Assembly (NCBI RefSeq): GCF_988242995.1
Contig: NZ_OZ547043.1
Reading direction: 5' to 3' (one strand)
Length of the DNA stretch: 64,000 nt
Position numbers and translations under genes: made by a program. Each line of letters begins with the position of its first letter. Within the stretch, counting starts at the first letter, position 1. The notes beneath the pieces were generated by a model that was not told where the DNA came from, searched no databases, and was given only the letters and a program-made list of their open reading frames with translations. Below, in pieces: positions 4,070 through 41,179 of the stretch.

Positions 4070-4296
4070 TTTCTTTCCTCTGTTATGCCATCACCCGCGC
4101 TCACTTGGACAGTATGCAGCGGAGACTGAAGCGCCGCAATGCAGGCTTGCCGTGTTGTGAGGTAAGGAGATTTTGGCTTGGTTGGATCTTTACGTGTTGC
4201 CTGTAGGCGGCCTGTTCGTATCCAGTTGGTGGCGGTTGGTCTGGATATCTTAAGAAACTGACAGGCCTCATCGAGTGTGAGGCTGTATGATTCCAT
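3925..4296 (-). CDS. Putative excisionase (AlpA/Xis-like HTH), 3' end overlaps int in another frame
   Basis: [34 protein letters not shown] immediately upstream of int; the long C-terminal extension may reflect decay. Confidence 0.45.
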
Positions 4297-4546
4297 GGTT
4301 ACCTCTGCTTTTTGAACGCATGTCACGTAACTTCTTAATGTGTTCTGCCGTTTCGATCTCTTCTGCTATCCGATCTGCATCAGCTTTATTCACAGGTTCA
4401 AAGTCATGATTAAAGCGGAACATGCTGGCGATACATGTTCTGCCTTTTCGGATGTAGTGAACTTTGTTGTGGGTAGAACGCAGGATTTTGCAGGGAGTGC
4501 CGTGGTGGTCGACGTACCAGGTGTTAGGAAAAATGATTCTGAACAT
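4268..4546 (-). CDS. Hypothetical early-left-operon protein
   Basis: 92-aa ORF co-oriented with int/exo; no recognisable motif. Confidence 0.3.
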   Translation of the reverse strand: MFRIIFPNTWYVDHHGTPCKILRSTHNKVHYIRKGRTCIASMFRFNHDFEPVNKADADRIAEEIETAEHIKKLRDMRSKSRGNHGIIQPHTR

Positions 4547-4593
4547 TTTTACACCTCAGTTGGACGATGTTGAAATTTGCTGCTTTGAGGCCA

Positions 4594-22895: not shown

Positions 22896-23110
22896 ACGGG
22901 TCCTTTCCGGCGATCCGACAGGTTACGGGGCGGCGACCTCGCGGGTTTTCGCTATTTATGAAAATTTTCCGGTTTAAGGCGTTTCCGTTCTTCTTCGTCA
23001 TAACTTAATGTTTTTATTTAAAATACCCCCTGAAAAGAAAGGAAACGACAGGTGCTGAAAACGAGCTTTTGGGCCTTTGTCGTTTCCTTTCTCTGTTTTT
23101 GGCCGTGGAA
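22896..23110. promoter_or_regulatory. Phage cos site (cosQ-cosN-cosB); cosN GGGCGGCGACCT at 22928-22939
   Basis: Matches the lambda cohesive-end 12-mer and downstream Nu1-binding repeat region, immediately upstream of nu1. Confidence 0.85.
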
Positions 23111-28672: not shown

Positions 28673-29005
28673 ATGACGAGCAAAGAAACCTTTACCCATT
28701 ACCAGCCGCTGGGCAACAGTGACCCGGCTCATACCGCAACCGCGCCCGGCGGATTGAGTGCGAAAGCGCCTGCAATGACCCCGCTGATGCTGGACACCTC
28801 CACCCGTAAGCTGGTTGCGTGGGATGGCACCACCGACGGTGCTGCCGTTGGCATTCTGGCGGTTGCTGCTGACCAGACCAGCACCACGCTGACGTTCTAC
28901 AAGTCCGGCACGTTCCGTTATGAGGATGTGCTCTGGCCGGAGGCTGCCAGCGACGAGACGAAAAAACGGACCGCGTTTGCCGGAACGGCAATCAGCATCG
29001 TTTAA
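28673..29005 (+). CDS. D: Head decoration protein D
   Basis: 110 aa [27 protein letters not shown]... matches lambda gpD. Confidence 0.95.
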
Positions 29006-29025
29006 CCTTACCCTTCATCACTAAA

Positions 29026-29048
29026 GGCCGCCTGTGCGGCTTTTTTTA
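29026..29048 (+). terminator. Hairpin plus T-run between D and E
   Basis: GGCCGC-CTGT-GCGGCC followed by TTTTTTT. Confidence 0.4.
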
Positions 29049-29060
29049 CGGGATTTTTTT

Positions 29061-29315
29061 ATGTCGATGTACACAACCGCCCAGCTGCTGGCGGCAAATG
29101 AGCAGAAATTTAAGTTTGATCCGCTGTTTCTGCGTCTCTTTTTCCGTGAGAGCTATCCCTTCACCACGGAGAAAGTCTATCTCTCACAAATTCCGGGGCT
29201 GGTAAACATGGCGCTGTACGTTTCGCCGATTGTTTCCGGTGAGGTTATCCGCTCCCGTGGCGGCTCCACCTCTGAATTTACGCCGGGATATGTCAAGCCG
29301 AAGCACTTAGCATGA
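29061..29315 (+). pseudogene. E: Major capsid gene E, 5' fragment (codons 1-84) truncated by the satellite insertion
   Basis: MSMYTTAQLLAANEQKFKFDPLF...GYVKPKH then two foreign codons and stop; the rest of E resumes at 40394. Confidence 0.9.
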
Positions 29316-29468
29316 CTTTCTGAGGCTTTCGTGTAGTTGCTGGTTTTTACACTTAATCTTTTGATAATAAAGAATAAGTTTATCTGGTGCTTTCACTGAA
29401 TTTTCCTCGTTATCTGTGTGTTGCAATCATCTCTGTATTGCAGCTTGTATTGCTTTTTGGGGCTAAAA

Positions 29469-30704
29469 ATGGCTGGCGAGAACAAACTGAGCGACAAAGC
29501 GCTTAAAGGATATCTGGGGAAACCCAGAGAAAAGCAGATCACCATTGCTGATGGAAAGGGGCTTTCTATTCGTGTGAGTACTAAAGGGGCTGTGAGCTTT
29601 GTTTTCTTCTACAGGTTAGCAGGTGGCCGGGCTGCTCCGGTCTGGCTAACGTTGGGTAAATATCCTGATATGTCACTCAAACAGGCAAGGGAAAAGCGCG
29701 ACGAGTGCCGTGGTTGGTTGGCTGACAAACGTGATCCGCGTATCCAGATTAAGATTCAGGCTGAAGAACGCTTAAAGCCGGTTACAGTGGAGGATGCACT
29801 AAATTACTGGTATGAAAATTACTGTAAGGTGCGTCGTAAAACTCATGCTGTAACGCTTGGCAGATTTCGAAAGCATATCTTTCCCTATATCGGTCATTTG
29901 CCCGTAAATGACACTCACCTATATGAATGGCTGGACTGTTTTGACCGAATTAAACGTAATGCACCAGTTATGGCGGCGTATGTTTTTTCTGACACTAAAT
30001 TAGCTCTTCGTTTTTGTCGGGTACGCCAGTACGCGACGTGTGATGCTTTAAAGGATTTGCGCATGAGTGATGTGGGGCAGATTGCAGGTAAGCGGGATCG
30101 GGTTCTGGATGAAGCCGAACTCGGCCAGCTCTGGAAGGCAATTTTTGTCGAGCCTGATTTAAAACTAATGTCTGAATACACGCGAAAAATGTTTGTGCTT
30201 TGTACAGTATTTGGATGTCGAATGAGTGAAGCCCGATTATCAGAATGGAGCGAATGGGATCTCGAAAGTTGGGTTTGGACTGTACCAAAAGATCACTCAA
30301 AAACTGGTGTTGAAATCGTCAGACCAGTACCTGAAATTCTACGACAGTGGGTAACGGATGTTCACGAAGAGACAAAACATACTGGTTATGTGCTGGGAAG
30401 TCTGCGAATTAGAGAAAGCGTAAGCAAGATTGGGGGGAAAATCGGTAAACGTTTGGGCCATGAAAAACAATGGTCACTACACGACCTTAGAAGAACGCTA
30501 TCTACTCATCTAAGTGATCTCGGTGTTGAATTTTATGTAGTAGAACAACTGTTAGGCCATGCGCTACCTGGCGTGGCAGGTGTTTACAACCGGAGTAAGT
30601 TTATGGCTAAAAAACTGGATGCTCTGGAACTCTGGACTACATATCTCAATAGCATCGCAGCTGCTGATTCAAAAGTGACAATCCTCAAACAAAAGGTTGG
30701 TTAA
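29469..30704 (+). CDS. Satellite tyrosine integrase (P4-type)
   Basis: From MAGENKLSDKALKGYLG...; catalytic region HDLRRT...LLGH...VYNRS; located at the element's left end. Confidence 0.85.
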   Translation: MAGENKLSDKALKGYLGKPREKQITIADGKGLSIRVSTKGAVSFVFFYRLAGGRAAPVWLTLGKYPDMSLKQAREKRDECRGWLADKRDPRIQIKIQAEERLKPVTVEDALNYWYENYCKVRRKTHAVTLGRFRKHIFPYIGHLPVNDTHLYEWLDCFDRIKRNAPVMAAYVFSDTKLALRFCRVRQYATCDALKDLRMSDVGQIAGKRDRVLDEAELGQLWKAIFVEPDLKLMSEYTRKMFVLCTVFGCRMSEARLSEWSEWDLESWVWTVPKDHSKTGVEIVRPVPEILRQWVTDVHEETKHTGYVLGSLRIRESVSKIGGKIGKRLGHEKQWSLHDLRRTLSTHLSDLGVEFYVVEQLLGHALPGVAGVYNRSKFMAKKLDALELWTTYLNSIAAADSKVTILKQKVG

Positions 30705-30705
30705 C

Positions 30706-30933
30706 ATGAAAAAAATGGCAATTGTTGATAAAAAGGGTCTGGAGTACATTCCTAACATTGACCGAATGATCCGTGAGAAAGAATGTCGGGAGCTAACCAC
30801 TCTTGCGAACAGCACACGCTGGAAGCTGGAGAAGGAAGGAAAATTTCCTAAGCGGATCAAGATTGGTTCCACTGCTGTTGCATATCGTCTTTCAGAAGTG
30901 CAGGCATGGATTCGAGGTGAGTGGGTAGTTTAA
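30706..30933 (+). CDS. alpA: AlpA-family HTH regulator/excisionase
   Basis: 75-aa ORF directly after int; the ORF-track start at 30697 is TTG, ATG at 30706 preferred. Confidence 0.7.
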   Translation: MKKMAIVDKKGLEYIPNIDRMIREKECRELTTLANSTRWKLEKEGKFPKRIKIGSTAVAYRLSEVQAWIRGEWVV

Positions 30934-31002
30934 ATTATCTCAGAATAAAATATTATGAATTACTGATTTGAGAATTTGTACTCAAATCAGTAATAACATT
31001 CT

Positions 31003-31539
31003 TTATAAGAGATTAAATCCAAATAAAGAGTAATCATATACCGGGGTGCATTGCATCCCACTGAATATGCTGATGTTTTTTTCTGTTTCTATCCTTTTTT
31101 CAATAAGTTGTTGTATATTTTTACAGTACAATTTGTGTGTGATGTTATTATCGTAAGCCTGATATAGCAACGTCAATGTTGATGCTATGAAACATGCAGA
31201 AAGAAAATGAACTAGTACATGTGAGCGTTTTTTGGTTGTCCATGATGCATTCGCTTGTGAAATATAAATCATTCTGAGAATGATAATGATGATAGACAGT
31301 AACAGACCACTCAATAAAATAAGTATTGGGTTTGCGTATTTAATTAATGGTTGAGAGCAAAAAACTATTATAGCTCCTGTGACTGCGTATGAGAAAAAGG
31401 AGTAATTAAACTTCTTACTCCTTCTCTCAAGTATTTTAATTTCATCTTGTGTGGGGGTTTTAGATGCCTCTAATATAAGTTTATTAAATGTTTCTGTTAT
31501 CTTGTTTTTTGTGTTTGTGGCTATTTTTTTTAGATTCAT
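31003..31539 (-). CDS. Hypothetical AT-rich membrane protein (2-3 predicted TM helices)
   Basis: 178-aa ORF with hydrophobic segments AVTGAIIVFCSQPLI and ILILLSGLLLSIIIIIL; convergent with alpA. Confidence 0.5.
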   Translation of the reverse strand: MNLKKIATNTKNKITETFNKLILEASKTPTQDEIKILERRSKKFNYSFFSYAVTGAIIVFCSQPLIKYANPILILLSGLLLSIIIIILRMIYISQANASWTTKKRSHVLVHFLSACFIASTLTLLYQAYDNNITHKLYCKNIQQLIEKRIETEKNISIFSGMQCTPVYDYSLFGFNLL

Positions 31540-31889
31540 AGCATTCTAACTCCCTTAACTTATTTATTACTTTCTCTTTATGATAAGAGAGGGGAATGAC
31601 TTGGTAAAGTGATTTGTCATTAATAATGATAATCCTTGCGATAAATATTTCTGCAAGTTATTTACCTGTTTGTTGCTATCTTGTTAAGCGTTGGGTGTGG
31701 TTTATGTTTGGAGCGACTTTATTTAATCGTGATTTTATGGATTTATATTTATATCCTGTAAGATAAGCGCATGTTAGTTCAGGAGTAGTGTCAGATAAAA
31801 TTATTCGGAGTAGAACTACCTTTTCTGTTTATTGCCAGTATTTACATAGCAATGCGCCGTAGTTACTCACATCACGGCGCTGATACTAA

Positions 31890-32195
31890 TTATTCAGATT
31901 CTTTGGCTTTACGCCGCTGGAGTTCTTCACGAGCGACGGCTACGAGTTGCCCGATTTCCTCCGCTGCCTTGATACCGATTTGTTCGACCTTAGCTAAGGC
32001 ATCCAGTGAAGACACGAGGGGATTTTCTCCGCTTCCTTCTGCCTGGCGGCGGGCGATTTCACCGCGCATGGCGGTTACGATAAATCCGGCATTGCTTTCA
32101 CCGTCCAGCTTAACGGATTCCATCCCTTGCATAACATCTAGTGGGACTCTGACAGTTGTCAGTTGTGATTTTGCGTTTTTGTTAGCCGTTGCCAT
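31890..32195 (-). CDS. Putative ribbon-helix-helix regulator (candidate satellite repressor)
   Basis: 101-aa ORF; TVRVPLDVMQGMESVKLDGESNAGFIVTAMRGEIARR fits a beta-strand/helix/G-x-S/helix RHH pattern; divergent from the primase operon. Confidence 0.4.
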   Translation of the reverse strand: MATANKNAKSQLTTVRVPLDVMQGMESVKLDGESNAGFIVTAMRGEIARRQAEGSGENPLVSSLDALAKVEQIGIKAAEEIGQLVAVAREELQRRKAKESE

Positions 32196-32256
32196 TTCTG
32201 AAACTCCTAATCATCGGTGTGTTTCAGTATACACAAAAAAAGAAATACAAAAAGCC

Positions 32257-32292
32257 TTGACGTGTGTTTCATGCGCTCATAACATGAAACAC
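32257..32292 (+). promoter_or_regulatory. Promoter (TTGACG-17 nt-TAACAT) overlapped by a palindromic operator
   Basis: Inverted repeat GTGTTTCATG (32264-32273) / CATGAAACAC (32283-32292) straddles the -10 element. Confidence 0.5.
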
Positions 32293-32385
32293 ACCGAAAG
32301 GATTGTTGAAATACAAAGAGCAACGCCCCGCAGTGCTGGGAACACATACGGGGCGTCTAACCAACAACGTAAACTAGGAGCCGTT

Positions 32386-32583
32386 ATGGTTGCTGTAAAT
32401 CATATACCACACCTTGTACACACACAAACGGCCTTTGTGTGGCGTTTTCTGGCACTGAGTGCCGGAGAATCTCAAATCATCCACGTAACCGCCTGGACGG
32501 AACGCGAAGCGCGTAGCCGTTGCCCGTCCGGTTGTGTTGCTGTATTCGCTGCAAAAATCCGCCAGGGAGTGAGTCATGCTTAA
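32386..32583 (+). CDS. Small hypothetical protein, first gene of the satellite rightward operon
   Basis: 65-aa ORF with AGGAG RBS 5 nt upstream of ATG 32386; the longer ORF-track frame from 31852 is rejected. Confidence 0.45.
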   Translation: MVAVNHIPHLVHTQTAFVWRFLALSAGESQIIHVTAWTEREARSRCPSGCVAVFAAKIRQGVSHA

Positions 32584-32761
32584 AACCTTCCGTGTATTTG
32601 CCCGAGCTGTTAACCCAATAGGCCACACAATTGGTATCGCTCAGAATGTGAAGGCTGTTAATGTTCAGACGGCTATTGCTGCGGTGAGAAGCGAATCATC
32701 AGAATATGGCTTATCACAAGTCATTATTTCAGCAGTGTATGAATTAAAAGAGGTGCATTAA
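32576..32761 (+). CDS. Small hypothetical protein
   Basis: 61-aa ORF; start overlaps the preceding stop (ATGCTTAA). Confidence 0.35.
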   Translation: MLKTFRVFARAVNPIGHTIGIAQNVKAVNVQTAIAAVRSESSEYGLSQVIISAVYELKEVH

Positions 32762-32952
32762 TGCAGGAAATCACATTACACGAAGCCGCTGAACGTGCGC
32801 ACCAGACAGAAATTATTTGCCGCCTTCTTGAGGTATATCCGAACAAAATTACAGATGCTGATATATCCGCGCTGGCGAGCCTACTGGCGCGCCTTTCGGG
32901 AAGTGTCGCTAGTTTCCTCATTGAGGAAGAAAGTAAGCTGGTGGGGGATTAA
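32761..32952 (+). CDS. Small hypothetical protein
   Basis: 63-aa ORF translationally coupled to neighbours. Confidence 0.35.
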   Translation: MQEITLHEAAERAHQTEIICRLLEVYPNKITDADISALASLLARLSGSVASFLIEEESKLVGD

Positions 32953-33174
32953 ATGAATACAGAACGGGAAGTCTTTTTTAAATTGTTAGCATGTGCAGAA
33001 AGTTCATTAACTTTAAATAATTCAGCAAAAGCAATATTAAATATGTGGCTTGATTGCATAAATGACAATGAAGATGCAAATATTGCTTATGGCCTGTTGT
33101 CACTTATTGATGAATCAGCAGAAAAACTCAATGACGCAATAAATAGTGCCCTGCTATCAAATAAGTCGAGTTAA
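32953..33174 (+). CDS. Small hypothetical protein
   Basis: 73-aa ORF, AT-rich. Confidence 0.35.
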   Translation: MNTEREVFFKLLACAESSLTLNNSAKAILNMWLDCINDNEDANIAYGLLSLIDESAEKLNDAINSALLSNKSS

Positions 33175-33191
33175 GTCGAGGAATAAATAAT

Positions 33192-33491
33192 ATGGAAATG
33201 AAAAATTCTGGCTTTATTGCCAGCGGCCCCGCTCGGCCTGAATTTATGAACGGCGATATTTACCGCGATAAATACGGCGGCACGGTAACGATTAAAGGCG
33301 TGGCAGAACGGCGCATCACTTACCGCCGTGAGGGGTATAGCTATGACTGCGTGATGCCTGTTTATCAGTTCCGGCGTGATTTTTCCCTGGTATATGCCGC
33401 ACCCCGCAGTAAGCCCATCAGCAGGGAAAAAGCGCGGGGAAACATCCAGAAAATGAAAAGCATGATTAACGCATTCAGGGGCAAAAAATGA
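33192..33491 (+). CDS. Hypothetical protein
   Basis: 99-aa ORF ending at the primase start. Confidence 0.4.
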   Translation: MEMKNSGFIASGPARPEFMNGDIYRDKYGGTVTIKGVAERRITYRREGYSYDCVMPVYQFRRDFSLVYAAPRSKPISREKARGNIQKMKSMINAFRGKK

Positions 33492-35239
33492 AACTGGCAC
33501 CGAACTTAAAAAAACAGCCACGCGACAGACTGACAGAGGTAATCATCTTTGCAGGTAGTGATGCGTGGAGCCATGCGAAAGAGTGGCGGGAATGGGCGGG
33601 TAAACATATTGCCGCCGACGATGTGCCGCCTGTCGTGCTGGCTGATGAGCAACTGAAAAATATCACCGATTACCGGATCATTGATGAAGATCGTCAGTGT
33701 GTGCGTGTTTACCGCGCAGGACATATCACAGAGCACAGCATGACGCAGATTGTTACGTTACTGGCTGTGGCTGGAGTGAAGACCGTACACGAATACGCGG
33801 GGATTACTGACACCAGCCCAGTGGATTTATCCGAGCAGTTGCCGCGACTCAAAGAGGAATGCGAGCGTGGGGAAAGTCTGGTGCTTAATCTTCCGACGAA
33901 GCAAAAGGCGCAACTTTCACAGATGGCAGACAGTGAACGTGCACAACTACTTGCCGATCGCTTTGATGGTGTGTGTGTTCATGCAGAAAGTGAAATCGTC
34001 CACGTATGGCGCGGCGGGGTATGGTGTCCGGTCAGCACAATGGAGCTGAGCCGCGAAATGGTGGCGATCTATTCAGAGCACAGGGCCACGTTCAGCAAAC
34101 GTGTAATCAATAACGCCGTGGAAGCGTTAAAAGTTATTGCCGACCCCATGGGGGAGCCGTCCGGTGATTTGCTACCGTTCACTAATGGTGTGCTTAACCT
34201 GAAAACGGGGGAATTTTCTCCGCACTCGCCGGAGCACTGGAGCACCACGCACAATGGCATTGAGTACACGCCACCAGTAGCAGGGGAAAACATCCGCGAT
34301 AATGCGCCAAATTTCCATAAATGGCTTGAACATGCTGCAAGAAAAGACCCGCGCAAGATGATGCGTATATGTGCCGCGTTATACATGATTATGGCGAACC
34401 GCTACGACTGGCAGATGTTCATTGAGGCCACCGGAGACGGGGGAAGCGGTAAGAGTACATTTACCCATATTGCCACCCTGCTTGCTGGCAAACAGAACAC
34501 CGTAAGCGCGGAGATGACATCACTCGATGATGCAGGAGGGCGCGCGCAGGTTGTCGGGAGTCGTCTTATCGTCCTTGCCGATCAGCCGAAATATACGGGG
34601 GAAGGCACGGGCATCAAGAAAATCACGGGAGGCGATCCCGTTGAAATTAACCCGAAATATGAGAAGCGATTCACGACGATAATAAGGGCGGTGGTACTGG
34701 CAACCAATAACGACCCGATGATCTTTACCGAACGGGCCGGAGGTGTGTCACGCCGTCGGGTGATTTTCCGGTTCGACAACATTGTAAGGGAGGACGAAAA
34801 AGACAAGGAATTACCGGAAAAGATAGCGGCAGAAATCCCCGTAATTATCCGCCGCTTGCTGGCTAATTTTGCTGACCCTGAAAAGGCACGGGCTTTATTA
34901 CTGGAACAGCGTGACGGTGATGAAGCTCTGGCAATAAAGCAGCAAACGGATCCGGTTGTTGAGCTTTGCGCGGCGCTGGAGTTTCTGGAGGAAGCTCGTG
35001 GGCTAATGATGGGCGGTGGTGGTGACACCGTGAAGTACACGACCAGAAACAGCCTTTACCGTGTCTATATGGCCTTCATGGCATACACAGGAAAGGGGAA
35101 ATGTTTGAGCGTGAATGAGTTCGGAAAGGCTATGAGGTCAGCGGCGAAAGTTTACGGATATGAATATATTACGCGAAAAGTTAAGGGAGTCACGCAGACC
35201 AACGCAACGACTACTGATGATTGCGATGCGTTTTTATAA
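33488..35239 (+). CDS. Primase/SF3-helicase replication protein
   Basis: 583-aa ORF with Walker A (TGDGGSGKST) in the C-terminal half and primase-like N-terminal half; followed by iterons. Confidence 0.8.
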   Translation: MKLAPNLKKQPRDRLTEVIIFAGSDAWSHAKEWREWAGKHIAADDVPPVVLADEQLKNITDYRIIDEDRQCVRVYRAGHITEHSMTQIVTLLAVAGVKTVHEYAGITDTSPVDLSEQLPRLKEECERGESLVLNLPTKQKAQLSQMADSERAQLLADRFDGVCVHAESEIVHVWRGGVWCPVSTMELSREMVAIYSEHRATFSKRVINNAVEALKVIADPMGEPSGDLLPFTNGVLNLKTGEFSPHSPEHWSTTHNGIEYTPPVAGENIRDNAPNFHKWLEHAARKDPRKMMRICAALYMIMANRYDWQMFIEATGDGGSGKSTFTHIATLLAGKQNTVSAEMTSLDDAGGRAQVVGSRLIVLADQPKYTGEGTGIKKITGGDPVEINPKYEKRFTTIIRAVVLATNNDPMIFTERAGGVSRRRVIFRFDNIVREDEKDKELPEKIAAEIPVIIRRLLANFADPEKARALLLEQRDGDEALAIKQQTDPVVELCAALEFLEEARGLMMGGGGDTVKYTTRNSLYRVYMAFMAYTGKGKCLSVNEFGKAMRSAAKVYGYEYITRKVKGVTQTNATTTDDCDAFL

Positions 35240-35252
35240 AAAATGGCAATGG

Positions 35253-35482
35253 TTATCTACCTTGTCTACCTGACTGAAAGAAAATACTTTTATTTCAATG
35301 TATTAATGCAGGTAGATAACTATTTTTCACTGTCTACCTGTTATCTACCTTATCTACCCATTTTTGTAGACAGGTAAGGAGACGGGTAGAGATGAGGTAG
35401 ACAGCTATTTGGGGCTGTCTACCTCCCTGAAACCCGCGCCATTACTGGCCTGATAACTAATCAGGTAGACAAGGTAGACAAG
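35253..35482. repeat. Satellite replication origin iterons (at least 10 copies of GGTAGACA/TGTCTACC in both orientations)
   Basis: Dense cluster of the 8-bp core in a 230-bp non-coding stretch just 3' of the primase gene. Confidence 0.75.
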
Positions 35483-35528
35483 GTGGTGGTGCACAAAAAA
35501 CTTTTTAAACGAGGGGGTAAAAATAAAA

Positions 35529-35786
35529 ATGCACACATCAGGAAAACTGAACAAACATATAAAGCCACATTACCGCGCCCTTGATATGGCTGAACACTGG
35601 CTAAGGGTGGCGATTAAGGCAATAGACCGCAACGCCGGGGAAGGATACGCGAAAGCACATCCCGAACTGATAAGCGCATTCATGACAACGGCGGCTGCAA
35701 ACTTTGCCACGCTGACCGAACGGGAGATTGCTGAAGCGGAGGAAGTGACAACAATCAATATTAAGTCCGGAGAGCAGGCAGCATGA
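35529..35786 (+). CDS. Hypothetical protein
   Basis: 85-aa ORF upstream of and coupled to ssb. Confidence 0.4.
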   Translation: MHTSGKLNKHIKPHYRALDMAEHWLRVAIKAIDRNAGEGYAKAHPELISAFMTTAAANFATLTEREIAEAEEVTTINIKSGEQAA

Positions 35787-36232
35787 CGGCGCAAATATCA
35801 GTTTACGGGCGGTTGGTGGACGACCCGCAGACAAAACAGACCAGCAAGGGCACCCCCATGACGCTGGCGCGTATGGCGGTATCACTGCCCTGCAGTCAGT
35901 CGGATGACGGTCTGGCGACGTTGTGGTTATCTGTCCTGGCGTTTGGCAGACAAGCCGACGCGCTGGCAAAGCATCACAAAGGCGAACTCCTGAGCGTGGC
36001 GGGTAACATGCAGATGAGCCAGTGGACTGGACAGAACGGCGAAACGCGGCAGGGCTGGCAGGTTATCGCAGACAGCGTAATCAGTGCGCGATCGGTGCGA
36101 CCGGGCGGCAAAAAAGGCCAACAGGGGCAGGCTACTGACGCACTGAACAGAGCAAAACAACAGGCAGATCAGCAAGGAAGCCAGCCACCAGAGGGAGATA
36201 ATGAGCAATGGGGAGATGATATCCCGTTTTAA
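35783..36232 (+). CDS. ssb: Single-stranded DNA-binding protein
   Basis: 149-aa ORF with Gly/Gln-rich linker and acidic C-terminal tail ending DDIPF. Confidence 0.8.
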   Translation: MTAQISVYGRLVDDPQTKQTSKGTPMTLARMAVSLPCSQSDDGLATLWLSVLAFGRQADALAKHHKGELLSVAGNMQMSQWTGQNGETRQGWQVIADSVISARSVRPGGKKGQQGQATDALNRAKQQADQQGSQPPEGDNEQWGDDIPF

Positions 36233-36448
36233 ATATTGCCAATAAAAAAAGCCGGAAAAAATAAATTTTCCGGCATGCTACATAAATCCCGACCAAAGGG
36301 AGTGAAGATATTAACACTAATTGTCCGCACTGAAGTTGTCACCCCAAAACTTTATACAACATTGCACTCGGTTGCATGTGTTCGCATGACAAATATCGGT
36401 GATAGCATATATCCACAATTATTTTTAATGAATGCAAAGAGGATGCGT

Positions 36449-37489
36449 ATGGTTGATTTATATTCGCCTACTCAGCTTGTACAGGTAGTTAATGCTGTAG
36501 ATGTACAAAAACAACTAAATGCGTTATTTACCAGTTTGTTTTTTACTCGCTCGGTAATGTTTGAATCGCGCGATATTATTCTTGATACAATCGACGATCC
36601 AAATATCCCAATTGCAGCGTTTTGTTCTCCTATGGTGGGTAGTAAAGTTTCACGTGACGAAGGGTACGAATCAAAAACAATTCGTCCAGGCTATATGAAG
36701 CCGAAAAGCAGCATTGATCCAAATAAGTTAGCTGTGCGCCCTGCTGGTGTGTCACCTGAGCAATACAATGCTTTTGGGGCGCGTAATATTAAAGTTAAAC
36801 AGGCGATTGTAAATCAGGCTAAAGCTATTCGTGCACGTATTGAATGGCTTGCTGTTCAGGCAATCACAACGGGGAAAAATATCATTGAGGGCGATGGTAT
36901 TGAACGTTATGAGCTGGACTGGAATATAAAACCACAAAATATCATCACTCAGTCTGGCGGTACTGAGTGGTCAGGTAAGGATAAAGAAACTTTTGATCCA
37001 AATGATGATATTGAGAGCTACGCAGAATTTAGTGAGGGCGTCACTAATATCATCATTATGGGTGGTAATGTATGGAAGAAATACCGTTCATTCAGAGCGA
37101 TAAAAGAGGCTTTGGATACCCGTCGTGGTTCTAATTCCGAACTGGAAACGGCCCTTAAAGACCTTGGTGATTCGGTGAGTTTTAAAGGGTATATGGGCGA
37201 TGTTGCGATTGTTGTTTACAGCGGGCGTTATACCGACGAGGACGGAACAGAAAAACATTTCCTTGATCCTGATTTGATGGTGCTTGGCAATACGGCTCTT
37301 CAGGGGATTGTCGCCTATGGCGGTATTCAGGATCCGGAGCTAATCCGAATGGGGCTGACTAAAGCCGAACTTGCACCGAAAAACTATATTGTGCCTGGTG
37401 ATCCGGCTATTGAATATGTGCAGACACATTCAGCACCACAGCCAATACCGGCCCGCATCAATCGTTTTGTTACCGTTCGCATTGGCTAA
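36449..37489 (+). CDS. Satellite-encoded major capsid protein homologue (lambda E-like)
   Basis: 346 aa; aligns with lambda E along its length (e.g. IITQSGGTEWSGKDKETFDPNDDIESYA vs NITQSGGTEWSKRDKSTYDPTDDIEAYA; DTRRGSNSELETALKDLG; GDVAIVVYSG). Confidence 0.8.
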   Translation: MVDLYSPTQLVQVVNAVDVQKQLNALFTSLFFTRSVMFESRDIILDTIDDPNIPIAAFCSPMVGSKVSRDEGYESKTIRPGYMKPKSSIDPNKLAVRPAGVSPEQYNAFGARNIKVKQAIVNQAKAIRARIEWLAVQAITTGKNIIEGDGIERYELDWNIKPQNIITQSGGTEWSGKDKETFDPNDDIESYAEFSEGVTNIIIMGGNVWKKYRSFRAIKEALDTRRGSNSELETALKDLGDSVSFKGYMGDVAIVVYSGRYTDEDGTEKHFLDPDLMVLGNTALQGIVAYGGIQDPELIRMGLTKAELAPKNYIVPGDPAIEYVQTHSAPQPIPARINRFVTVRIG

Positions 37490-37498
37490 GGGGGAGCA

Positions 37499-37840
37499 AT
37501 GGCTACTCATTACACTGAACTCATGGCTGGCACTGAAGCACTGGTGACTACGCTGGGGATATTTTCAGCTAATAAAGGGGTAATTCCTGCATTTACGCCA
37601 CTGATGCAGGAAGATGCAACAGGTGCACTGGTGGTATGGGATGGTTCGAGCGTAGGTAAAGCGGTTTATGTTTCCGCTGTACAAATCGACACCGCGAAAA
37701 AAACACAGGCTCAGGTCTATAAGACAGGTGTCTTAAATGTTGATGCTCTGAACTGGCCTGAGTCTGTTAAAGAACTGTCAGTAAAGGTTGCAGCGTTTGT
37801 TGGCTCAGGTATTTCTGTTCAGCCGCTGGCTCGTGTGTAA
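37499..37840 (+). CDS. Satellite-encoded head decoration protein homologue (lambda D-like)
   Basis: 113-aa ORF; TPLMQEDATGALVVWDGSSVGKAV...VYKTG parallels lambda [22 protein letters not shown]...FYKSG. Confidence 0.7.
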   Translation: MATHYTELMAGTEALVTTLGIFSANKGVIPAFTPLMQEDATGALVVWDGSSVGKAVYVSAVQIDTAKKTQAQVYKTGVLNVDALNWPESVKELSVKVAAFVGSGISVQPLARV

Positions 37841-37851
37841 AGGGGGATACA

Positions 37852-38235
37852 ATGCAGAATGATTACAATGACCTTAAGCCAATTGCCGAAATGATGTACC
37901 CGAATCCAGCTGTAGAGGAATTAAAAGCTATCGCTGACAAAATGTGTTTAAGCGAGCGCCTTGTTGATATGAATCAGGTGATGGAAATTACAACCCTGAG
38001 TCGTCGTACACTGCTAAACCTTGAGGCTAGTGGAGAGTTCCCGGAGCGTGTGCAGGTTACGGAAGGGCGTAAGGCCTGGTATTTAAGTGAAGTGATCGAC
38101 TGGATAAATAATATTCCTCGCGCTTCTGAATATTGCCGCGTACCTGTCCCAAAAAAGCCAGATGCGGCGCTATGCCTCAAGATTGAGCGTGTACGCCGCA
38201 ATGCACGGGATGGTCGCTATAAGCTGATTGGTTGA
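37852..38235 (+). CDS. Winged-HTH (AlpA/MerR-excisionase-like) protein adjacent to satellite cos
   Basis: 127-aa ORF; C-terminal MEITTLSRRTLLNLEASGEFPERVQVTEGRKAWYLSEVIDWINN HTH; strong RBS; ends 20 bp before the cos-homologous region. Confidence 0.6.
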   Translation: MQNDYNDLKPIAEMMYPNPAVEELKAIADKMCLSERLVDMNQVMEITTLSRRTLLNLEASGEFPERVQVTEGRKAWYLSEVIDWINNIPRASEYCRVPVPKKPDAALCLKIERVRRNARDGRYKLIG

Positions 38236-38257
38236 TGAAATTAGGGCCCGCTCTGGC

Positions 38258-38465
38258 TGGCGGGTCCTTTCCGGTGATCCAGAACGTTACGGGGCGTCAG
38301 GCGCGCAGATTCTTGCTATTTATGACAATTTTCTGCGATTTGCCGTTTCCGTTCTTCTTCCTCGTAACTTAGTGTTTTTACTAGAAATACCCTCTAAAAA
38401 GAAAGGAAATGACAGGTGCTGAAAACAGGCTTTTGGGTCTCCGTCATTTCCTTTCTCATTTTTAT
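38258..38465. promoter_or_regulatory. Satellite cos site homologous to the prophage cos (variant cosN GGGCGTCAGGCG at 38292-38303)
   Basis: About 210 bp alignable with 22896-23110; flanking and downstream repeat segments conserved, 12-mer differs at 5 positions. Confidence 0.75.
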
Positions 38466-38718
38466 CTAAAAGTAAGCATCGAGGCCACCCCAAATGCTTA
38501 TAGAGGTTATTGTGTCACTATGCGTACTGTTCAGGATTTAAAGTAGCAAGACATCTAGTTGCTTGCAGTTTTGGCGAATGATGTGAGGTTCTCTATAACA
38601 GATAATGTAACAAGTTACTGATATATTCTGTTATGGTTGACTTTAAATTTTGTTGCTCCTTCAATGAATTATTGAGGGGTAAAAATTAGGCGTGATAAGA
38701 ATCGATCACGCCTATTGT

Positions 38719-40035
38719 TTATCTTGAAGAAATTTTAGGCAGGCTTTTTAAAAATAAATCTTTATTTCTACTTGCATCAGTTAAAAGTGTTAGGAATATT
38801 TTATCTGTAGGAGTGCATGTGCTCTTGTTTAACAGTAATTCACCAAGTTTCTGTAATCGAGAGAATTGCCCATCCTCTTGGATTCTGTGACGAAGTGTAC
38901 TATCATTTTTAATAACATCAACAAATGCAGAAACCATGTTAATATCAAAGTGTTCAAACATTTCCAATATTAAAGGTGCAGCCCCATTTGAATAAAAATT
39001 CTTCCTTCCATACTGATAGCTGAAACCACGATGGCCAACATAAGTTTTTGTAATGGCTGAAACAAATTCAACAATATTATCTTCAGGGACGAAACTCGAG
39101 AATGGTAATAATTGGGTTACGATTTTTTCCTCTTCTGACCAATTATCTAAAGACTCGGTGAGTTTATTAATGAGAGGCTCAATAATAACTTTTCGGGATG
39201 CAGGGCTAATATACATCAGTCCATCTACCAATAGTATGAATTGTTGTGCCTTCTCTATCTTATTGTTGTTTCCTGAAACTAAATACTTGTCAAATTGTTG
39301 GCCGACTTTACGTCGGTCGTCTTTTGAAAGTAATGTCCATAAAATAGGTGCGCAAAATTCAATGTTGTTTCTGAGTTCACTTGATATATTGGATGAGCAG
39401 TATGTGCCAAAAAAACGAGAGGATAATTCACTGATATAAATTGCAGGTAGATCTGAAAAGGCTTGCTTAACTGCCAGACTATTTTTATTAAATGTTGCCG
39501 AATCCATTTCTGAAAGATATGTAGTTATATCTATGATGGCTGGTGGAAACTCTTTAGAAAGAACGTATTTATTACAATCATTAATCAGGTTCACTACTTT
39601 GATTAAATCAGGGTCGCTACTTTGTGGATGTCCACCAAATAGATTCCTGGTTTCTCTAGCTTGTTGTAATAGTTTCTGACCTTCTCGATCGATAACTCCT
39701 ATTTTAAATGCTCCATCTATTAAATCAAAGTCGCTCACATAATCCTGAAAATCTTCATACGTTTTAATTTCTTTTTTTTGTTTACACTCTTTGTTGAATA
39801 GATCTAGGCTACGATGAATTATCTTTTGACGTAAATCATCAACTACAGCATTCCAGTAAGCAGTGATGGCACTTCTATAACCTTTTACAGGAAGAACTCT
39901 TATTGCTTCTGAAATATATGGGCAGTCAACTACATCATGCCTCACAGTTGAGAGCGCAGTTTGTAACAATGTAACTTCTGTAGAGTCTAGTGGAGTTGGC
40001 TGCACTAAATGAGAACTTATCTCTGTACCCTTCAT
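38719..40035 (-). CDS. AT-rich 438-aa protein with HEPN-like R-x5-H motif (candidate anti-phage/abortive-infection protein)
   Basis: Single long ORF in the satellite's variable end; RNLFGGH at residues 130-136; no ATPase motifs; own AT-rich promoter region 40036-40150. Confidence 0.6.
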   Translation of the reverse strand: MKGTEISSHLVQPTPLDSTEVTLLQTALSTVRHDVVDCPYISEAIRVLPVKGYRSAITAYWNAVVDDLRQKIIHRSLDLFNKECKQKKEIKTYEDFQDYVSDFDLIDGAFKIGVIDREGQKLLQQARETRNLFGGHPQSSDPDLIKVVNLINDCNKYVLSKEFPPAIIDITTYLSEMDSATFNKNSLAVKQAFSDLPAIYISELSSRFFGTYCSSNISSELRNNIEFCAPILWTLLSKDDRRKVGQQFDKYLVSGNNNKIEKAQQFILLVDGLMYISPASRKVIIEPLINKLTESLDNWSEEEKIVTQLLPFSSFVPEDNIVEFVSAITKTYVGHRGFSYQYGRKNFYSNGAAPLILEMFEHFDINMVSAFVDVIKNDSTLRHRIQEDGQFSRLQKLGELLLNKSTCTPTDKIFLTLLTDASRNKDLFLKSLPKISSR

Positions 40036-40393
40036 TTCAGGATTTTCCTATTCTTTTCCATTTTTCTACTCTATTGAATTTGAAAAAGATATCAAGTTCG
40101 TTCTTGCCAGTTTTAAGTGGAAAATTTGATGTTACCTTATTGAGATAAGGCAGTTCTCTATAACCTATTGTTATTAATTATTTTTATTTTTTTCCAATTC
40201 AGATGTTTAGGGCTAAGAAGTTAAGTGAGAGTTCACAGCAAAACTGCTTCTAGTTCCTCACCGAGGAGCAAAAGGTTAAGACAGCGTACTTTGTATTGCA
40301 CAATGTATTGCAGAACCTTCTTTCGAAAGCTACAACAATCAATTTTATATTGAAAATTCAATCATATCCTTTCGATATTGACTCATATAACCC

Positions 40394-41179
40394 AAGCATG
40401 AGGTGAATCCGCAGATGACCCTGCGTCGCCTGCCGGATGAAGATCCGCAGAATCTGGCGGACCCGGCTTACCGCCGCCGTCGCATCATTATGCAGAACAT
40501 GCGTGACGAAGAGCTGGCCATTGCCCAGGTCGAAGAGATGCAGGCAGTTTCTGCCGTGCTTAAGGGCAAATACACCATGACCGGTGAAGCTTTCGATCCG
40601 GTTGAGGTGGATATGGGCCGCAGTGCGGCCAACAACATCACGCAGTCCGGCGGCACGGAGTGGAGCAAGCGTGACAAGTCCACGTATGACCCGACCGACG
40701 ATATCGAAGCCTACGCGCTGAACGCCAGCGGAGTGGTGAATATCATCGTGTTTGATCCGAAAGGCTGGGTGCTGTTCCGTTCCTTCAAAGCCGTCAAGGA
40801 GAAGCTGGATACTCGTCGCGGCTCTCATTCCGAGCTGGAGACAGCGGTGAAAGACCTGGGCAAAGCGGTGTCCTACAAGGGGATGTATGGCGATGTGGCC
40901 ATCGTCGTGTATTCCGGACAGTACGTGGAAAACGGCGTCAAAAAGAACTTCCTGCCGGACAACACGATGGTGCTGGGGAACACTCAGGCACGCGGTCTGC
41001 GCACCTATGGCTGCATTCAGGATGCGGACGCACAGCGCGAAGGCATTAACGCCTCTGCCCGTTACCCGAAAAACTGGGTGACCACCGGCGATCCGGCGCG
41101 TGAGTTCACCATGATTCAGTCAGCACCGCTGATGCTGCTGGCTGATCCTGATGAGTTCGTGTCTGTACAACTGGCGTAA
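40394..41179 (+). pseudogene. E: Major capsid gene E, 3' fragment (codons 83-341)
   Basis: From KHEVNPQMTLRRLPDEDPQ... to ...DEFVSVQLA, matching lambda E downstream of the break. Confidence 0.9.

Follow-up and report, generated by a model that had tools for sequence, protein, structure and literature searches.

A two-fold symmetric iteron array downstream of pri is the probable replication origin of a helper-embedded PICI

We analyzed a stretch of 64,000 nt from the NCBI RefSeq assembly GCF_988242995.1 (contig NZ_OZ547043.1), read as one strand from 5' to 3' and called the window below. It contains an 11-kb helper-embedded PICI of the 11capE type, which lies inside a lambda-like prophage and splits its lambda-E-like capsid gene. 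The N-terminal fragment of the capsid protein runs up to ...GYVKPKH at about 29306, and the protein resumes at about 40391 with PKHEVNPQ of the C-terminal fragment. We placed the island junctions from this split reading frame; the two parts of the helper capsid gene lie at 29034-29315 and 40391-41179, with the break at the codons for ...KPKH/EVNPQ. Identical islands are annotated in RefSeq with the same split of the capsid gene, inside a lambda-like prophage. A search for the att core by exact matching and blastn-short gave only short identities. The genes follow one another in the order integrase (29418-30704), DUF4222 protein, "primase", a gap, an 85-aa ORF, SSB, lambda-E-like capsid, lambda-D-like decoration and AlpA-like protein. 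This includes the PICI set of int, HTH/alpA, pri, ssb, capsid and decoration genes and, as in the capE group of helper-embedded PICIs, the element interrupts a prophage late gene, here of a lambda-like prophage, and points in the same direction as that gene. The initial annotation had likewise taken it for a satellite.

This island resembles Eco567.11capE, a helper-embedded PICI described by Tommasini, Mageeney & Williams 2023 (PMC10111431). Eco567.11capE is likewise 11 kb long, is co-oriented with the lambda-E-like capsid gene of a lambda-like prophage in which it resides, and carries int, alpA, pri, ssb and its own capsid gene; the likeness is one of organization. With reference to Fillol-Salom et al. 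2018, the same paper places the origin of such islands downstream of pri; iterons are not described in it, and the word itself is absent.

Several features of the island lie away from the origin region. The helper has no capsid protein of its own until the island excises, and the island codes for its own capsid and decoration proteins (36236-37840). Its right end holds a 438-aa ORF on the minus strand (38719-40035) that is annotated as hypothetical. The cargo at this position varies: E. coli strain 10 has another hypothetical gene there, and FDAARGOS_1268 a gene for a DUF262 protein. The island also has a cos region similar to that of the helper (22897-23099), which holds the lambda cosN GGGCGGCGACCT at 22928. 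The 12-nt cosN core reads GGGCGTCAGGCG in the island as opposed to GGGCGGCGACCT in the helper. Because of this difference, the terminase of the resident prophage may not be the one that cuts the island.

The gap between pri and the 85-aa ORF measures 289 bp (35240-35528) and holds a dense array of short repeats. All 10 exact matches to GGTAGAYA in the 64-kb window fall within 227 bp of this gap (35254-35480). The chance expectation is 1.95 ± 1.22 matches per window; the highest number seen in a shuffled sequence was 5, and none of 100 shuffles reached 10. Six of the exact copies read GGTAGACA and four read GGTAGATA. When up to two mismatches to AGGTAGACA were allowed, two degenerate copies were gained, at 35364 (TTGTAGACA) and 35384 (GGGTAGAGA), giving a total of 12 iterons, six on each strand. 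Their consensus is aGGTAGAYAr, with G2 to A6 and A8 invariant (GTAGA-A core). The island as a whole has 13 GGTAGA cores, 11 of them in this gap, and neither the island nor the whole window contains a second, crr-like iteron cluster.

The initial annotation had described at least ten copies in both orientations, and this count holds. It had also placed the array right after the primase gene, in agreement with our finding that iteron 1 begins 15 bp past the stop codon of pri. Its placing of the array before ssb needs a correction, as the 85-aa ORF lies between the two (Table 1). Finally, it had called the stretch non-coding. The only ORF inside the array, of 44 codons (35243-35377), is kept in just 7 of the 31 distinct versions of the gap found among the relatives described below, which argues that the stretch is indeed non-coding.

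Table 1. Coordinates of the satellite, its initiator gene, the iteron array and neighboring features in the window
Feature	Position	Strand	Remarks
Satellite, approximate extent	29307..40399	+	In split lambda-E-like capsid gene of resident prophage
Initiator gene pri (Pri-Rep), 583 aa	33488..35239	+	Toprim-like N-terminal domain without catalytic motifs, D5_N, SF3 helicase, C-terminal origin-binding domain
Winged-helix origin-binding domain (residues 487-578)	34946..35221	+	phmmer and Foldseek to 1KA8; Asn543 and Gly546 linked to specificity
Iteron 1	35254..35262	-	AGGTAGATA
Iteron 2	35263..35271	-	AGGTAGACA; 9-bp tandem with iteron 1
AT-rich spacer, candidate unwinding element	35272..35309	.	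38 bp, 76% AT
Iteron 3	35310..35318	+	AGGTAGATA
Iteron 4	35331..35339	-	AGGTAGACA
Iteron 5	35342..35350	-	AGGTAGATA
Iteron 6	35351..35359	-	GGGTAGATA
Iteron 7, degenerate	35364..35372	+	TTGTAGACA; overlaps dyad center 35367
Iteron 8, degenerate	35384..35392	+	GGGTAGAGA
Iteron 9	35395..35403	+	AGGTAGACA
Iteron 10	35416..35424	-	AGGTAGACA; inverted repeat with iteron 9 (perfect arms of 12 nt)
Right spacer, mirror of AT-rich spacer	35425..35462	.	38 bp; holds near-invariant box CTGAAACCCGCGCCATTACTGG
Iteron 11	35463..35471	+	AGGTAGACA
Iteron 12	35472..35480	+	AGGTAGACA; iterons 11-12 are the inverted repeat of iterons 1-2 (21 nt, 95%)
Leader and ribosome-binding site of 85-aa ORF	35494..35528	+	Right edge of pri-3'/ori cassette; invariant in gap alignment
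85-aa ORF (phrog_1231)	35529..35786	+	Between origin and ssb
Island SSB	35783..36232	+	Pfam SSB, E = 2e-15
Island cos region (packaging site)	38261..38463	+	81% identical to helper cos 22897-23099

The array is built with two-fold symmetry from two outer tandem pairs, two 38-bp spacers, of which the left one is AT-rich, and eight central sites (orientations: --, AT spacer, +---, +++-, spacer, ++). Five of the six iteron mirror pairs share the same dyad center at 35367.0, and five coincident centers were obtained in none of 20,000 random placements. Four such mirror pairs are kept in the array of EcCICFT073, and the array of vB_KppS-Ant is only approximately symmetric. The left spacer is richer in AT (76%) than the island on average (57%), and it is placed like the AT-rich region that is drawn between the sets of iterons in PICI origins of E. 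coli (PMC6092414 Fig. 2a).

The right spacer holds a GC-rich box of 22 bp (35427-35448, CTGAAACCCGCGCCATTACTGG) that is near-invariant over the 31 distinct gaps irrespective of their iteron class. This box occurs only once in the window and is missing from the vB_KppS-Ant clade, and inspection by eye revealed no convincing DnaA, IHF or LexA site in it. Folded as single-stranded DNA, the gap (35240-35528) reaches -51.3 kcal/mol (z = -6.95 compared to shuffles). This strong fold arises because the iterons are inverted, and extrusion of a hairpin or cruciform after melting is possible. An RNA element was also considered and discarded: no Rfam match was found in 29000-41000 at E up to 0.1, and the fold is a by-product of the inverted iterons.

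We then turned to the protein encoded by pri. It has a D5_N plus SF3 helicase core, for which Pfam reported D5_N and DUF5906, and TIGR01613 scored 103.5 bits, just under its cutoff of 108.7. The helicase core matches PDB 7OLA (E = 5e-15), which is deposited as "DNA primase" and is probably a SaPI helicase. Residues 137-578 align with residues 321-762 of P4 alpha at 41% identity, and residues 487-578 match PDB 1KA8, the origin-binding domain of P4 alpha (phmmer E = 2.2e-7). In an AF2 model of the last 113 residues, the structural elements follow the winged-helix order (mean pLDDT 61, with 74-83 in the helix-wing core), and the top Foldseek match of this model is again 1KA8 (probability 1.00, TM 0.53-0.59). 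This model of the binding domain is of only moderate confidence.

The N-terminal part of the protein is different. The Zn-ribbon and Toprim primase domains of P4 alpha were not found in the initiator, and its N-terminal domain had no match in Pfam or NCBIfam. In PHROGs, this domain matched only a family of unknown function and a family labelled DNA primase. The first 130 residues are predicted to adopt a confident fold (pLDDT 82), and a likeness to Toprim is hinted at by the fold search only. The comparison of this domain with the P4 Toprim region by hhalign was negative, and the positions of the Toprim acidic residues, mapped by eye onto the alignment, appear as an invariant Ala-Gly in the initiator. 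Sequence matches of this domain to designed "Pizza" proteins in the PDB were artefacts, with no stretch passing. The initial annotation had called the protein a primase-helicase. No primase catalytic domain is recognizable in it, and "helicase-initiator" describes the protein best.

A close relative with a tested origin is EcCICFT073. We located this island in the CFT073 chromosome and found the same order as in the window, namely DUF4222, pri, a gap (288 bp), the 85-aa ORF and ssb. The two Pri proteins are 80% identical, and the two gaps can be aligned, with GGTAGAYA iterons at matching places in both; over four variants, the mean column identity of the gap alignment is 79%. Fillol-Salom et al. 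2018 (PMC6092414) reported that the pri-ori segment of EcCICFT073 maintains a temperature-sensitive plasmid, that deletion of pri or ori abolished or reduced this maintenance, and that the island is transcribed one way, from upstream. Our search of the later literature found nothing specific on the EcCICFT073 iterons. The window locus is also organized like a Gram-negative PICI origin, being located immediately 3' of pri and consisting of iterons 1-2, an AT-rich spacer and iterons 3-12. Nevertheless, the two islands are not identical. The N-terminal 135 aa of the initiator of EcCICFT073 have diverged from those of the window protein, and the binding domains differ at 18 of the last 100 residues (VNEFGK versus VNDFGK). 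Furthermore, EcCICFT073 occupies a chromosomal site, whereas the window island resides in a prophage capsid gene.

The homology with P4 alpha extends to the DNA. The annotated type 1 repeats of P4 are GGTGAACA octamers present in both orientations (GGTGAACA/TGTTCACC), and the C-terminal domain of alpha reportedly binds them (Ziegelin et al.; Yeo et al. 2002, cited in PMC2777425). Like the window island, P4 combines a helicase and a winged-helix origin-binding domain, homologous to those of the window initiator, with octamers that follow closely 3' of the initiator gene, in either orientation and in part as 9-bp tandems. The two octamers differ at three positions. The exact P4 octamer is used by vB_KppS-Ant, which has a Pri with 40.7% identity to that of the window and an array with the same orientation pattern. 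However, P4 has two clusters, ori and crr, 4.5 kb apart, where the window has a single one, and only alpha carries the Zn-ribbon and Toprim primase domains.

We next compared the initiators and gaps of 83 loci, comprising 80 IMG/VR loci (Pri 78-100% identical), L001, L002 and EcCICFT073. They yielded 31 distinct gaps, with lengths of 285-289 bp. Conservation among these was highest in the GGTAGA cores (0.94), intermediate in the non-iteron columns (0.81) and lowest at iteron positions 7-8 (0.715). The conservation of the cores supports selection acting on the iterons. The iterons of a locus vary together at positions 7-8, all of them being either GGTAGAYA (YA) or GGTAGANG (NG). This alternation is tracked by two residues of the initiator, since YA iterons occur with Asn543/Gly546 in 55 loci and NG iterons with Ala543/Ser546 in 27. 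One locus, L054, is discordant, and the opposite mismatch did not occur (30, 24, 1 and 0, respectively, when counted as distinct haplotypes). Both residues lie in the third (recognition) helix predicted by the AF2 model. Alleles of the helicase core, of the DUF4222 protein and of the 85-aa ORF were each found with both iteron classes. The sole exception, L054 (IMG/VR), combines an Ala543/Ser546 binding domain with GGTAGAYA iterons and may have arisen by recent recombination, the crossover falling within the sequence that codes for the binding domain.

An exchange of the whole unit was seen in L028. On either side, up to about 34100 and from about 35500 onward, this locus matches the window at 98% identity or more. 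It has diverged in between, throughout the array and in the 3' part of pri. This indicates that the 3' part of pri and the array move as one cassette. In L028 and L029 (IMG/VR), this segment has been replaced by a cassette of the GGTAGAGG class, and the right breakpoint coincides exactly with the invariant leader that precedes the 85-aa ORF. Similarly, among 80 relatives of vB_KppS-Ant, L102 has a replaced binding-domain wing together with GTAGACA iterons, and others have TGAACAG or GTATTCA iteron variants. The correlation between protein and iterons could stem in part from tight linkage, the codons being located about 120 bp from iteron 1, but linkage alone does not explain the concerted change of about 10 dispersed sites. 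At the sequence level, the octamer-like sites of the window co-vary with the C-terminal domain of the initiator, and the concerted change of positions 7-8, the two tracking residues and the cassette exchange support a pairing of the two.

We consider it highly probable that the array is the replication origin of the satellite and that each aGGTAGAYAr is a predicted binding site for the C-terminal winged-helix domain of the satellite's own initiator. This reading builds on what was obtained directly: the symmetric array, its orthology with an origin that has been tested, the homologous binding domain and the co-variation of protein and iterons. The initial annotation had already proposed an iteron-type origin, and the orthology with EcCICFT073, the P4-alpha-like domain and the iteron co-variation argue for this proposal. 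The feature represents one allele of an origin type that is already known and has experimental support, and its satellite belongs to a class that has been published.

Other functions of the array were considered. By analogy to crr, it could be a cis-acting enhancer that binds the initiator and is needed in cis, with synthesis starting elsewhere. Indeed, the P4 cluster immediately downstream of alpha is crr (4291-4590), the annotated P4 origin being 4.5 kb away, and the window initiator is an alpha homologue. However, the array contains an AT-rich spacer, and all GGTAGAYA copies and 11 of the 13 GGTAGA cores of the island are found in this one gap. Because there is only one cluster and because the orthologous pri-ori fragment of EcCICFT073 alone supported plasmid replication (PMC6092414), we regard a purely crr-like role as unlikely, and distinctly so.

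The array could also be a transcriptional operator or copy-control element for the 85-aa ORF, ssb and capsid genes, acting through autoregulation or origin pairing by the bound initiator, with no role in initiation. It does lie directly upstream of this operon segment and its invariant leader, and plasmid iteron arrays often double as control elements. However, no sigma-70-like promoter or terminator was found in 35100-35700, the island is transcribed unidirectionally from upstream (PMC6092414), and the array is orthologous to a functional origin. A control role would add to the origin function rather than replace it, and we find it very improbable that the array serves control only.

A satellite needs a packaging signal and integrase arm sites somewhere, but there is next to no likelihood that the array is a cos/pac or att-like site, since 12 sites co-varying with an initiator domain do not fit recognition by a terminase or an integrase, the att junctions lie at about 29306 and 40391, and a cos role is ruled out by the cos homologue of the island at 38261-38463. 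Just as negligible is the likelihood that the repeats arose by chance, are mere low-complexity sequence or serve to encode the 44-codon ORF overlapping the left half of the array, given the shuffling result, the conservation of the cores throughout a family that 570 E. coli genomes carry and the lack of conservation of this ORF, which rules out a small-protein role.

For the array as an origin, we infer a course of initiation that includes direct binding, a melting site, a loading mode for a double ring and a source of primers. Upon induction of the helper, the rightward operon of the island would be expressed and initiator molecules would occupy the iterons. The initiator would form rings of SF3 helicase and melt the AT-rich spacer next to them, after which the DNA would be unwound and the island SSB would coat the strands. 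Priming and synthesis would probably be carried out by the host DnaG and Pol III; we propose host priming because the initiator has no recognizable primase catalytic domain. The exact dyad suggests that two helicase rings may be loaded head to head. A comparable layout is known from SV40 large T antigen and papillomavirus E1, which combine an SF3 helicase with an origin-binding domain and act on dyad short sites beside an AT-rich element, an arrangement that suits head-to-head loading of two rings. The fold of their binding domains and their sites are unrelated to those of the window, where double-hexamer loading is suggested by the symmetry. The Rep-ori units of SaPIs and Gram-positive PICIs are also similar, in the sense that the origin is located immediately 3' of the initiator gene and that sets of iterons flank an AT-rich region. 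Unlike the window, however, they have other iterons, no alignable DNA, initiators with another DNA-binding region and, in SaPIs, divergent instead of unidirectional transcription.

In the case of 11capE, three induction experiments have been published (PMC10111431). Two of them gave an attP:attB ratio of about 1 once the satellite had excised, and the third gave 1.6-1.9. These measurements of autonomous 11capE replication are equivocal, and the autonomous replication after induction that the initial annotation had deduced from the array is therefore conjectural in the natural setting.

We tentatively combine these data in a wider hypothesis, which we consider rather doubtful as a whole. The last third of pri would be exchanged together with the origin as a specificity cassette, and such cassettes would set the replicon classes of E. 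coli PICIs, with Asn543/Gly546 versus Ala543/Ser546 switching recognition between YA and NG. The initiator would be a primase-less relative of P4 alpha with a degenerate Toprim domain, of which two head-to-head rings would form on a symmetric platform of 12 sites and rely on the host primase. The exact dyad, the co-variation of two residues with two bases, the cassette exchange and the missing primase domain are modestly interesting additions to the known origin type.

This origin family could be aligned in 570 of 5,426 complete E. coli genomes (about 10%), with up to four copies in a genome, and 77 of these genomes carry the allele of the window. Our analysis leaves the current picture of PICI biology unchanged, and amounts to the correct annotation of a known type of element, with added detail. 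For a satellite residing within its helper prophage, it locates the cis-acting element of replication. With the origin and its cognate domain known, it becomes testable whether such an embedded satellite replicates on its own or passively with its helper. Two further questions likewise become testable: whether co-resident satellites avoid interference by differing in iteron class, and by what means a P4-alpha-like helicase that lacks a primase domain is primed.
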